A stretch of 64,000 bases of DNA from Spirochaetaceae bacterium. GTDB lineage: Bacteria > Spirochaetota > Spirochaetia > DSM-2461. This document shows, piece after piece, positions 16,990 through 40,891 of this stretch. The DNA is taken from assembly GCA_965224705.1 (NCBI GenBank), contig OZ245056.1, forward strand, positions 2,432,001 to 2,496,000. Direction: 5' to 3'. The notes beneath the pieces were generated by a model. It was given only the letters and a program-made list of their open reading frames with translations, was not told the origin of the DNA and made no database searches. Made by a program: the position numbers and the translations under genes. The first letter of the stretch is position 1. Every line of letters starts with the position of its first letter.

Positions 16990-17151
16990 GAGTCTGTCGG
17001 ACTTACGCCTCACGGCTCGATTTTTGCCCTTTTCCCCTGCTGCTGCGTTGCCAAAATACTCACGTAGCCCAGCTACGCTCCGTTTTTGTCGCCTTGCATC
17101 AGGGAAAAATCATCAAAAATCGCCTCAAAGACTTAAAGTCCGACGGACTCC
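16989..17151 (+). mobile_element. MITE-like element copy 1 (163 bp, ~16 bp terminal inverted repeats)
   Basis: GGAGTCTGTCGGACTT...AAGTCCGACGGACTCC; internal hairpin CGTAGC-cca-GCTACG; homologous to copies at 21797-22124 and 40356-40570. Confidence 0.85.
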
Positions 17152-21796: not shown

Positions 21797-21960
21797 GGAG
21801 TCTGTCGGACTTTAAGACTTCGAGGCGATTTTTGATGATTTTTTTCTGATACAAGGCGCCAAAAGCGGAGCGTAGCTGGGCTACGTGAGCATTTTGGCAA
21901 CGCGGTAGCGGGAAAAAAGGGCAAAAATCGAGCCGTGAGGCGGAAGTCCGACAGACTTCC
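21797..21960 (-). mobile_element. MITE-like element copy 2
   Basis: Near-identical to copy 3; period 165 bp; terminal inverted repeats. Confidence 0.85.
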
Positions 21961-21961
21961 A

Positions 21962-22124
21962 GGAGCCTGTCGGACTTTAAGACTTCGAGGCGATTTTTGA
22001 TGATTTTTTTCTGATACAAGGCGCCAAAAGCGGAGCGTAGCTGGGCTACGTGAGCATTTTGGCAACGCGGTAGCGGGAAAAAAGGGCAAAAATCGAGCCG
22101 TGAGGCGGAAGTCCGACAGGCTCC
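21962..22124 (-). mobile_element. MITE-like element copy 3
   Basis: Perfect 16 bp TIR GGAGCCTGTCGGACTT / AAGTCCGACAGGCTCC; overlaps the last base of the rseP TAG. Confidence 0.88.
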
Positions 22125-38165: not shown

Positions 38166-38637
38166 TGTCTTCTTTGTCCATATTGATATCATCTGTAGTA
38201 AATGGGACTTTAATCTCAAAACCCTTGTAGACCATAAAAGATTCAATGGATTCTATTCGGTCAACTTTGCTTAATTCTTCGCTGAGGAATTTCAACAGGT
38301 CGAATCCCTGCTGAAGATGCACAGTGATGAGTAAATCGTAGCGACCGGTTACAACACCAACTGAAACAACACCGTGAAGTTTACTTACCTCTTCTCCTTT
38401 GGAAACGTAATTCATATCTTTGAGCTTGGCACCGATGTAGATGATTTGATGACCCAGCATGGCTTCAGGGTCAACATAGCCTGCAATTTTCAGTATTCCA
38501 TCCTGTTCAAGTTTACGTACTCGTGCTTTTATTGTGTTTTCTGATACTCCAAGAGCAACAGCGATTTTTTTGTACGGCTTTCGTCCTTCAGTCAAATGAC
38601 TGATAATGCTCATATTCAATTGATCAATCTGAGTCAT
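38152..38637 (-). CDS. Lrp/AsnC family transcriptional regulator
   Basis: GRKPYKKIAVALGVSENTIKARVRKLEQDGIL HTH; VTGRYDL. Confidence 0.92.
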   Translation of the reverse strand: MTQIDQLNMSIISHLTEGRKPYKKIAVALGVSENTIKARVRKLEQDGILKIAGYVDPEAMLGHQIIYIGAKLKDMNYVSKGEEVSKLHGVVSVGVVTGRYDLLITVHLQQGFDLLKFLSEELSKVDRIESIESFMVYKGFEIKVPFTTDDINMDKEDNEPD

Positions 38638-39718
38638 AGTACCTGCTTGCGAAATCCTTCATTAGTTCCATCAGTCTCATCAGACCATCCATACTCATGG
38701 CATTATACAGGGAGGCTCGGCATCCTCCCACACTGCGGTGTCCCCTGAGACCTACGAGTCCGTTTGCTGCAGCCTCCTCAAGAAATTTGTTCTCTAACTG
38801 TTCCGTTCTTAATCGCCAGACTATATTCATATCCGATCTCATATTGGGGTCCACGGGATTCCTGTAGAATCCTTCAGACTCATCAATGAGCCTGTAGAGT
38901 GCTGCGGCCTGCTGCTTGTTCTCTTCTGCAACTCGACTCAAACCACCTTGATCTTTTAGTTTTTCCAAAACCAGTTTCATTGCCCAGATAGAGAATACTG
39001 GAGGAGTGTTATATAGAGAATTGCTCCTGGCATGAACGGCGTAATTCAAATATGAACCAAGATAATTGGGACAGCGTGAAAGAAGATCTTCTCTGATTAT
39101 CACGACTGTTGCGCCAGCTGGACCAAGGTTTTTCTGGGCACCGGCATAAATCACAGCAAACCTGGAAACGTCAATTGGTCTGCTGAGGATATCGCTGGAC
39201 ATGTCGGCAAAGAGGGGAATCTCCTGTGTGTCAGGAAAAGATTTCCACTGAATCCCTCCTATTGTTTCATTGGTGGTTATGTGAAGATAGGATGACTCCT
39301 TATGTATTGTCAGATCGAGGGGATTGGGCAGCGTGCAGTATCTGTTACTCTCACCATCCCATGGGATAGATATCGAACCGAACTTCTTTGCTTCTGTAAT
39401 TGCTTTTTGTGCCCATGCACCGGAATTAATATACTCGGCTCTGCTGTTGGGTAATAGAAAATTCATTGGGATCATGGAGAACTGCAAAGTAGCACCTCCA
39501 CTGAGGAGGAGAATGCAATAGGATTCAGGGATTTTCATCAGTTCTCTGAGGAGGAGAATCACTCCGTTATGTACTTCTCTGTATGGGGTTTCCCGGTGGC
39601 TCATTTCCACTATGGAGAGACCAGTCCCATTGTAGTCGAGCATTTCCTGTGAAATAGTCTTCAATACTTCAACAGGGAGTACAGATGGACCAGCAGAGAA
39701 ATTAACAGGGCGATTCAA
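38624..39718 (-). CDS. serC: Phosphoserine aminotransferase
   Basis: NFSAGPS, EMSHR, GAQKNLGPAG, GHRSVGGCRASLYNA; start TTG 39718 or ATG 39733. Confidence 0.96.
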   Translation of the reverse strand: MNRPVNFSAGPSVLPVEVLKTISQEMLDYNGTGLSIVEMSHRETPYREVHNGVILLLRELMKIPESYCILLLSGGATLQFSMIPMNFLLPNSRAEYINSGAWAQKAITEAKKFGSISIPWDGESNRYCTLPNPLDLTIHKESSYLHITTNETIGGIQWKSFPDTQEIPLFADMSSDILSRPIDVSRFAVIYAGAQKNLGPAGATVVIIREDLLSRCPNYLGSYLNYAVHARSNSLYNTPPVFSIWAMKLVLEKLKDQGGLSRVAEENKQQAAALYRLIDESEGFYRNPVDPNMRSDMNIVWRLRTEQLENKFLEEAAANGLVGLRGHRSVGGCRASLYNAMSMDGLMRLMELMKDFASRYYDSD

Positions 39719-39748
39719 TCCTTCTCTCCTCATTCAGCGGCTTGCTGG

Positions 39749-39778
39749 ATTGTGTCATTATTTGTGTCAGGGATGCAA
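39749..39778 (-). promoter_or_regulatory. Putative serC operon promoter
   Basis: TTGCAT-18 bp-CACAAT with TGn extension; overlaps a TGACACAA direct repeat pair. Confidence 0.35.
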
Positions 39779-39782
39779 TAGG

Positions 39783-40248
39783 CGAGGAGAAGAGCAAAAC
39801 AGGAAAGGCCGATGTTATCAAGTTTTTGGGTATGACCATTGTGGCCGGAATGATCACGATTTCGTCGGTGTCAATGAGCCGAGCCAATGATAGGCTTTGT
39901 GAATTGATACCCAGACGAACGAATCAGTCTATTGAATCTGCAATGGAAAAGCTGAATACCTGGTACCGGGGCTGGAGCGGATATTACGGTATGACCGAAG
40001 ATAAGCACCAGCTTCAAAGAGTAGAAGCCCATGCCAGAAGGCGATTGAGATCCCGAATAGTGTATGAGCACAAGAGACCCCGGAATCTGAAACGAACTCT
40101 ATTAAAAAGGGGAGTATCAGAGTATGGGGCCAATCGTATCATCAACAATATGGGCATCTGGGCGACTTCAAGGAGTCCGGCTATGCACAAAGCTTTTCCC
40201 AATCGGTATTTCATTGAAGAACTCGGGCAGTTTATTTATTCAGCCTGA
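39783..40248 (+). pseudogene. C-terminal fragment of a group II intron RT/maturase
   Basis: EEKSK...KFLG (RT7), LNTWYRGWSGYY (domain X), GIWATSRSPAMHKAFPNRYF; no YADD, no endonuclease domain. Confidence 0.88.
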
Positions 40249-40355
40249 GACTGAAAGAAATTTGAACACATGCATGAGGAGCCGTGTACGGACCCGTACG
40301 CACGGTTCTGTGAGAGGACGGCATCCCTGCTTTCGCAGGGTGCCTCCTACTCGAT
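39783..40355 (+). mobile_element. 5'-truncated group II intron, class C-like
   Basis: Domain V GAGCCGTGTACGGACCCGTACGCACGGTTC (40279-40308), domain VI with bulged A, ending ...CCTACTCGAT; left boundary approximate. Confidence 0.9.
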
Positions 40356-40570
40356 GCGTAGCTGGGCTACGTGAGTATTTTGGCAACGCAGCTGCAGGGG
40401 ATGCGAGTCTATAAACTCGCATCCTGAGAGAGTGCCGAGCGATAGCGAGGAAAAGCCGCCACGGATGGCGGCGAAAACGAACGAAGGCGGCTTTCCAGAA
40501 GCAAGCAGGAGGCTTGCTTCTGGAGAGAAGGGCAAAAATCGAGCCGTGAGACGTAAATCCGACAGGTTCC
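40356..40570 (-). mobile_element. MITE-like element copy 4 (partial, with ~125 bp internal insert)
   Basis: GCGTAGCTGGGCTACGTGAGTATTTTGGCAACGC and AAGGGCAAAAATCGAGCCGTGAG...TCCGACAGGTTCC match copies 1-3. Confidence 0.85.
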
Positions 40571-40891
40571 CTATGCAGAATCGTAGACTTCGTCTTTTGT
40601 CGGAAGATTGACTCTCAACTCTTTCATATAGGATTTCAAATCTCCCATCGGTGTATATGTATCACAGTGATCCATGAACCGACGTGCGATTGTAAAATAC
40701 TTGTGTAATTTCTCGTCGCCAAGTTTCTTGCGCCATTTCCCGGCACTGCATCTGATTCGCAGCATGTATTTACCATCATTGGTGTAATGACGGATGAGTT
40801 TGCAGTTTATGCAATTGGCACAGTAGATTTTCTTATTTAAATTCTCTTTTAACGGATCAAATGCTGGAACCATTTCCATCCTCTCGAGCAC
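40571..40891 (-). CDS. Small Cys-rich hypothetical protein
   Basis: YCANCINCK...RC...C pattern, possible metal binding; follows glgP; start uncertain. Confidence 0.7.
   Translation of the reverse strand: MLERMEMVPAFDPLKENLNKKIYCANCINCKLIRHYTNDGKYMLRIRCSAGKWRKKLGDEKLHKYFTIARRFMDHCDTYTPMGDLKSYMKELRVNLPTKDEVYDSA

Follow-up and report, generated by a model that had tools for sequence, protein, structure and literature searches.

A class C-like group II intron remnant at a MITE core in a Spirochaetaceae genome and the palindromic targets of its lineage

In a 64,000-nucleotide stretch of Spirochaetaceae DNA (the window, meaning the whole stretch analysed, which belongs to the 3.0 Mb genome G000), the end of a group II intron is joined directly to the core hairpin of a MITE. 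This locus raises the question whether the intron belongs to a lineage that homes into a multicopy MITE, as proposed in an earlier note on the same DNA, or whether the MITE core is one of several palindromes that such introns enter.

The window copy and its lineage

Rfam places an Intron_gpII match at positions 40277–40355 of the forward strand of the window, with 47.9 bits against a gathering score of 40. The intron terminus is formed by CCTACTCGAT, with its last base at 40355, and GCGTAGCTGGGCTACG of the MITE core follows directly on the 3' side; the spacer-free junction described in the earlier note is thus real. The 5' exon has indeed been lost, as the note also stated: the match to full-length copies, which are 2035 nt long, begins at 39783, and the first 1463 intron nucleotides are missing, as are domains I to III and most of the RT gene. 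The remaining part, copy c1 (Table 1), is 94.6–97.2% identical to the 3' ends of four other copies in the genome, while its protein remnant is 94.6% identical to residues 278–426 of the full frame. It is a dead copy. The hallmarks of a group II intron are present, i.e. domains V and VI with a bulged A, an AY end, a GUGYG start and an RT/maturase gene, of which the window copy retains only the 3' part. The MITE hairpin adjoins the junction, as the note had seen, but on its 3' side, while the class C rule that the note invoked puts the hairpin 5' of the site. The compensatory changes listed for this apical hairpin are based on four sequences.

Table 1. Features of the window, with elements elsewhere in G000 and in the same-genus genome G035 (a slash in a motif marks the insertion point)
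Feature	Position	Strand	Basis or remarks
Class V aminotransferase gene	38624-39733	-	start only 49 nt from c1 truncation point
Copy c1, 3' remnant of class C-like group II intron	39783..40355	+	573 nt, 5'-truncated
C-terminal remnant of intron-encoded protein (maturase/thumb)	39783..40248	+	Pfam GIIM E=3.8e-12, frame 39742-40245
Domain V, short distal stem, AGC triad at 40280-40282	40279..40310	+	Rfam alignment with 4-nt gap; exact motif match; fold
Domain VI, bulged A at 40349, terminal AT	40313..40355	+	sequence; fold of same region in c2
Right part of long-form MITE (3' exon): core hairpin, long-form insert, right terminal inverted repeat	40356..40569	+	~97% identical to other long-form copies
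Apical hairpin of MITE core, first G = +1 base (IBS3)	40356..40372	+	DNA fold; compensatory changes versus G035 core
Second target site of long-form MITE (AACGAA/GGCGGC)	40480..40491	+	empty in window copy, occupied in c2
Empty short-form MITE	21797..21957	+	core site 21869/21870
Empty short-form MITE, tandem copy	21962..22122	+	core site 22034/22035
Empty short-form MITE	16991..17151	-	core site 17079/17078
Apparently intact autonomous DDE element (L282)	G000:C1:1526964-1528570		CTAG duplication, MITE's ends; ~5 kb from intron copy c5
MITE-bearing G035 introns, starts	462043, 1498693, 1505762, 1524256, 2694447, 3241704, 3285181		L209, L215, L225, L226, L220, L222, L223

Synteny with the related genome G037 stops at 39779 and is picked up again at 40577, so that a rearrangement has its junction at the c1 remnant and the half MITE beside it; the 5' part of c1 was probably lost in this later rearrangement of the genome. 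Given the short distance between the truncation point and the start of the neighbouring aminotransferase gene, the upstream region of this gene has been altered; no sigma-70-like site was found that could serve it as an outward promoter. Elsewhere in the window, residues 26527–26963 form an array of more than 20 units of an 18-nt tandem repeat. The intron is covered by four public runs from three studies, and contigs from one RNA run cover it. No new intron junctions were found among the loose ends listed from the public runs, several of which, holding the stretch, are labelled mollusc metagenome.

Target recognition was analysed in 22 introns taken from at least 120 metagenomic loci, with both ends present, at least 47% protein identity and duplicates removed, to which three copies from G000 and G035 contribute. 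Intron nucleotides 237–239 are Watson–Crick complementary to exon positions -1, -2 and -3 in 20, 19 and 19 of the 22 introns, respectively, a level of covariation reached by none of 40 shuffles. At -4 the covariation is borderline, and at exon positions -5 to -15 none was detected in 21 introns, i.e. there is no EBS2 signal. EBS1 reads UUCG and forms a perfect pair with CGAA; with the CGGA of the MITE, the pairing for which the earlier note had asked, it also pairs, through one G.U wobble. A candidate for EBS3 is weak, fitting 13 of the 22 introns and leaving the T-rich +1 position in G035 unexplained. Recognition consists of a 3–4 bp EBS1–IBS1 pairing and a G at +1, with no sign of EBS2 and no endonuclease domain.

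The 421-aa protein P0001 contains RVT_1 and GIIM domains only, and its best matches among solved structures are the GsI-IIC RT (E=9e-97) and the E.r. maturase (2e-85). Domain V is short, with a 4-nt gap relative to the Rfam consensus, and the AGGAA motif of domain I is present, as GAAGGAAG in 19 of 22 aligned rows and as GAAAGAAG or GAAGAAAG in the other 3. As there is no endonuclease domain, a short domain V, an EBS1–IBS1 pairing of 3–4 bp and no EBS2–IBS2, the intron works like class C. A CGC catalytic triad is given as a class C trait in the available text of PMC1702495; in the window and in the lineage rows with a located domain V the triad is AGC, in the corresponding reference rows it is CGC. 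In the trees, from which loci without an intact frame were omitted, the lineage forms a clade of its own (100/99) that groups with the CGC-type rows (96/94). It is their sister in the 56-row tree and has an unresolved position at the CGC-type base in the 26-row tree, from which four long branches were dropped; the reference rows of both are labelled from triad and context, not curated, and do not include g6, U1 and U2 references. The latter introns are near class C and often follow terminators, according to the accessible part of PMC8919778. A tree uniting the lineage with the integron-borne attC introns is rejected, though mildly (AU p=0.035), and the sites are CGRA/G, where membership of IIC-attC would call for TTGT/T in the attC bottom strand and a place in the attC clade. 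The class C assignment of the earlier note is thus right as regards class C-like features and needs amending as regards the AGC triad and the position outside the IIC-attC clade.

The lineage motif was found in none of 400 other genomes of the phylum sample and in no viral contig, and genomes G034, G036 and G037 gave no match to the 3' or 5' end of the intron, though MITE cores are present in them. A scan of genome contigs yielded 13 loci, mostly distant. Protein relatives number in the thousands, with top hits near 60% identity, and the clade seems to be without a characterised member. The closest named protein, P0002, is 78% identical and carries the label of a Shewanella MAG, which, together with the 0/400 result, suggests horizontal arrival. 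Several arrangements were noted among the relatives. In L131 and L110, introns of the lineage stand in tandem, head to tail, with one inserted at the 3' end of another or immediately behind it. L081, L101, L164, L171 and L176 form a related sub-branch with 3' exons that start CGTAGCG, and in L081 the intron is preceded by GGAG, an echo, in another small palindrome, of the register found in G035. L077, L095, L103, L108 and L153 belong to a second, more distant clade (~38% protein identity) with the same short AGC domain V sequence. Genomes G009 and G010 (L016, L017, L027-L043) contain 9–11 introns each, clustered within tens of kb, which group with integron-borne attC introns and suggest intron-rich cassette arrays.

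The MITE core as an insertion site

The repeat is a MITE: it has terminal inverted repeats and a target duplication, lacks a transposase and has an autonomous partner with matching ends. In G000, 142 paired MITE ends were found, mostly delimiting 150–300 bp, with 4-bp target duplications in 67 of these elements. The autonomous element is 1607 bp long, has the same ends as the MITE and encodes DUF772 and DDE_Tnp_1_6; we take the architecture to be of the IS1182 kind. MITE-derived DNA makes up 206 intervals, or 1.03% of G000. A second family, F2, has different ends and the same core, which presumably resembles ERIC/RPE repeats. The core motif has 90 matches in G000, preceded by CGGA in 80 cases, by an intron end in 3 and by variant bases in 7. 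Counting empty against occupied cores, as the earlier note had suggested, thus gives 80 to 3, an occupancy of 3/83. The three other MITE copies of the window, which the note took to be empty sites, are so, reading CGGA/GCGTAGC. The second target sequence of the long-form MITE has 31 empty exact matches in G000.

Six copies with a domain V are present in G000: three at the MITE core, one at the second MITE site and two in other palindromes. Full-length copies begin GTGTG and carry a 426-aa frame, which is intact in c2 and c4 (2035 nt) and contains a stop in c3; c5 and c6 have internal deletions, c7 is a 5' fragment and two further short remnants exist. The core-site copies c1, c5 and c6 have a long F1, a short F1 and an F2 element, with its other terminal repeats, as respective hosts. 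Copy c6 retains both exons (CGGA/intron/GCGTAGC) and has an A as first intron base, while c5 has a non-MITE 5' exon joined to a MITE 3' exon. The second site of a long MITE is occupied by c2, a unique hairpin by c4 and a third repeat family by c7; c3, located ~4 kb from an integrase fragment, and one short remnant have attC-like flanks. The region around c3 (L283, G000:C1:1064000-1083999) is decayed and integron-like; besides attC-like palindromes it contains a fragment of a tyrosine integrase and a gene for a cytosine methylase. Of the six surviving 5' exons, five have CGAA as their last bases and the sixth has CGGA, so the 5' exon ending in the CGGA of the MITE that the earlier note expected exists in c6 and not in the others. 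The sequence CGAA/G presumably resembles stable GAA-triloop DNA hairpins. All 7 surviving 3' junctions start with G. A check of leading and lagging strand gave 5/9 copies, with a noisy skew.

Fragments of a sister intron with 71–75% protein identity occur in G035, where no intact frame was found with the query used. There are 21 matches to the 3' end and 30 to the 5' end, beside 125 empty copies of the homologous core. The intron ends lie at this core in 5 of the 30 5' exons and in 4 clear cases and 1 degenerate case of the 21 3' exons; the core insertions are in five different host variants, and both exons are at the core in only one copy. The register is one base further on (CGGAG/T), and the EBS1 loop has changed accordingly to fit CGGAG, reading CCCTCTGA in 11 of the 12 copies where the loop was located; among the 30 5' exons, 17 have GAG as their last bases. 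Short 5' fragments inside a tandem repeat, and not true insertions, account for six of the 30 5' matches. At G035:C1:3145982-3150620 and at 2436187, a tandemly repeated unit has come to include roughly the first 60 nt of the intron. The remaining insertions are in other repeat families and attC-like sites. Most near-complete G035 copies (e.g. L044, L046 and L050; ~950-1100 nt) lack the same internal part of the RT gene; what has multiplied there is thus a form without the gene, no intact protein having been found with the query used. In L232 (G035:C1:1194500-1205000), a unit of two genes is duplicated in tandem between two direct intron copies; the left half of a MITE lies at one outer end and the right half at the other. 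Re-integration of a circle was considered for the swapped exons of these two introns and rejected, as the predicted empty site is absent and the empty homologues show a different 5' partner; the exons are simply chimeric. Dispersed intron copies appear to reshuffle both genomes.

The nesting also occurs the other way round. Seven of the eight exact G000-type cores of G035 lie inside intron domain I, in antisense orientation and at one position, in copies with different exons; at least seven dispersed copies are thus MITE-bearing (Table 1). As the exons differ while the position is the same, the MITE has likely been spread as a passenger of the intron, via retrotransposition or gene conversion.

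The recurrence at the core might stem from one ancient insertion that was multiplied later, by transposition of an intron-bearing MITE or by recombination between intron copies, and not from repeated targeting. The mixed exons of c5, the location of c1 at a rearrangement break and the single G035 copy with both MITE exons all fit this, and many copies have mismatched exons, indicating that recombination has shuffled their flanks. However, the host MITE families differ in their terminal repeats, the core-associated introns are not each other's nearest copies, and the G035 insertions have another register and another EBS1. Copies c1 and c5 are even the most divergent pair of introns (30 differences over 570 nt), an argument that they were inserted separately. 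A single ancient insertion is therefore regarded as very improbable.

At the other extreme, the lineage could be adapted to the MITE core, with all other sites being rare ectopic events. Four of the six domain V-bearing G000 copies are within MITEs, the G035 sister intron is found at the homologous core with a 5-bp EBS1 match, and the pairing beside the insertion point covaries (53 AC..GT, 21 GC..GC and 4 mixed), conserving the fold of the core. Three of six copies at 83 cores is also far more than expected from all 11,180 CGRA/G sites (P=8e-6) or from the 1,811 such sites outside long ORFs (P=0.002). When the 216 most stably folded sites outside long ORFs are taken as the reference, however, P rises to 0.42 (0.09 and 0.02 with looser cut-offs). 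Furthermore, the perfect EBS1 match CGAA, and not the core with its wobble, ends most surviving G000 5' exons, 25 of the 30 G035 5' ends are elsewhere, few G000 cores are occupied, and the core starts none of 102 metagenomic 3' exons among the loci listed. Dedicated homing is thus considered quite improbable. As core use is not above chance among the most stably folded sites, the MITE is best read as the commonest good palindrome and not as a unique home; its core is a recurrent target, neither dedicated nor exclusive, among many palindromes. Of the homing claimed in the earlier note, the targeting of the MITE stands, with one core occupied three times, both exons kept in c6, the EBS1–CGGA pairing and the sister intron at the homologous core, while the dedication does not. 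The note had named unrelated flanks as evidence against its reading, and such flanks are found in part, in the copies located in attC-like palindromes, a unique hairpin and other repeat families.

Predicted geometry of the targets

For IIC introns, a stem-loop 5' of IBS1 is the norm in the accessible parts of PMC1702495, PMC7923331 and PMC10190682, and the last of these describes, in the text available, a cryo-EM structure in which the IIC protein reads a DNA helix by its shape. At the MITE core, the 5' exons have no hairpin of their own: their predicted folding energies are -2.5 and -2.7 kcal/mol, compared to a background mean of -3.4, and that of the G035 core 5' exon is -1.4 kcal/mol. Instead, the predicted helix is formed between the 5' and 3' exons and stops 4–6 nt short of the site; IBS1 then falls into a G.A internal loop, also predicted, that adjoins the helix CAAAA/TTTTG. 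The target structures are minimum-free-energy predictions from a model that scores sheared G.A pairs and triloops poorly.

A helix across the exons is predicted for 12 of 16 reconstructed G000 and G035 site types, the MITE core among them, which would thus depart from the class C arrangement of a stem-loop wholly in the 5' exon, and for 1 of 12 metagenomic relatives (Fisher P=0.0006, with kin not independent). For 6 of the 16 site types, besides the two MITE-core rows, the reconstruction started from empty homologues chosen by the authors; for the remaining ones it used the copies' own, possibly chimeric, exons, and with two related genomes the types are not independent. In the strongly folded background, 140 of 306 sites (46%) have a predicted cross-exon helix, against which 12/16 gives a binomial P near 0.02. 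The other 11 of the 12 metagenomic relatives have the 5'-only pattern in their predicted folds, or at least no cross-exon excess. Among the loci listed, the 5' exons of the wider relatives are structured (mean z -1.56, n=16) and their 3' exons unstructured. Hairpins in the 3' exon were considered as a rule for the whole lineage and rejected (mean z -0.24 versus -0.23 for controls, n=63 and 42). In L143/L150, a relative is located in a MITE with similar ends, but 3' of the hairpin of that MITE. Together with the absence of the core from the metagenomic 3' exons, these data suggest that the departure in geometry is confined to the branch of G000 and G035. From the predicted folds, this branch likely enters the loops of DNA palindromes, while its relatives land just after a hairpin.

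It could be argued that the class C rule still holds in its canonical form, with a 5'-only stem-loop or hardly any structure being required, and that the cross-exon folds reflect the survival of harmless insertions in intergenic palindromic repeats. The exon structure of the wider relatives points that way, as does the strongly folded background, of which nearly half is already of the cross type, and usable 5'-only hairpins are also found at the G000 sites c2, c4 and c7. Nevertheless, hairpin-less 5' exons have been hit repeatedly at one base of the MITE core, and the excess over the background would remain to be accounted for; an unchanged rule seems unlikely.

On balance, we think it probable that c1 is the dead remnant of a copy that arrived by ordinary reverse splicing, and that the intron has a wide range of palindromic targets, to which the core belongs as an abundant one. 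The RNP, having no endonuclease, would attack folded single-stranded DNA at replication forks, and would read CGRA/G via base pairing and the adjacent DNA helix via its shape. In the G000 and G035 branch, this helix is usually predicted between the 5' and 3' exons, which would put the site in the loop of a palindrome or in an internal loop; the frequent use of MITE cores would then follow from their being the most numerous strong palindromes that contain a match. A more far-reaching proposal, tentative and on the whole rather doubtful, is that the structural rule for target choice has changed in one branch of the class C-like introns with an AGC triad, which would dock on a cross-site helix and enter palindrome loops and G.A internal loops, that sister introns retune EBS1 to different registers of the MITE core, and that MITEs ride inside the intron RNA, so that a retroelement and a DNA transposon would become nested in each other in a cycle running both ways. 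With c2 and c4 intact and dozens of natural target variants at hand, the question of geometry is directly testable.

Relation to known systems

The location of an intron inside a MITE is in itself the less surprising part, since IIC introns after "other inverted repeats" and RmInt2 at IS ends are already known, as far as the consulted parts of the sources tell; the altered target geometry, if the predicted folds are right, is the unusual part of the system. In a search of largely open-access literature, no description was found of a IIC-like intron with a MITE core or a cross-exon helix as its target. RmInt2, a class D intron of Sinorhizobium meliloti, likewise lacks an endonuclease and uses the inverted repeats of the multicopy element ISRm17 to spread. 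However, in the accessible text (PMC4615759), it uses long EBS1, EBS2 and EBS3 pairing to one sequence and enters terminal repeats, while here ~5 nt are paired, many palindromes are used and the internal core of the MITE is entered. The "MITEtron" of Ca. Thiomargarita nelsonii has a MITE within an intron, as the G035 copies do, but is a single group I intron in the part of PMC4853749 consulted, compared to at least seven dispersed group II copies with the MITE at one position in G035. The IIC-attC introns of the S.ma.I2 type and the Enterobacter cloacae IIC intron that inserts in the attC top strand resemble the present lineage in having a multicopy palindrome other than a terminator as target, and some copies described here are in attC-like sites; IBS1/IBS3 is CGRA/G or GGAG/T here and, in the available text of PMC7923331, TTGT/T there.

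The closest parallel is with the class C introns B.h.I1, GsI-IIC and that of E. rectale, which, according to the accessible part of PMC1702495, share the short domain V, the 3–4 bp EBS1, the lack of EBS2, the AGGAA motif and the inverted-repeat targets. In contrast, the G000 intron has an AGC and not a CGC triad and belongs to a separate clade at or beside the class C base, the targets in G000 and G035 are MITE, REP-like and attC-like palindromes and not terminators, and the helix is mostly predicted across the site and not wholly 5' of it. Structure-guided targeting is the defining trick of IIC introns; if the cross-site helix serves like the 5' stem-loop, the rule would be one of helix geometry and not of terminators.
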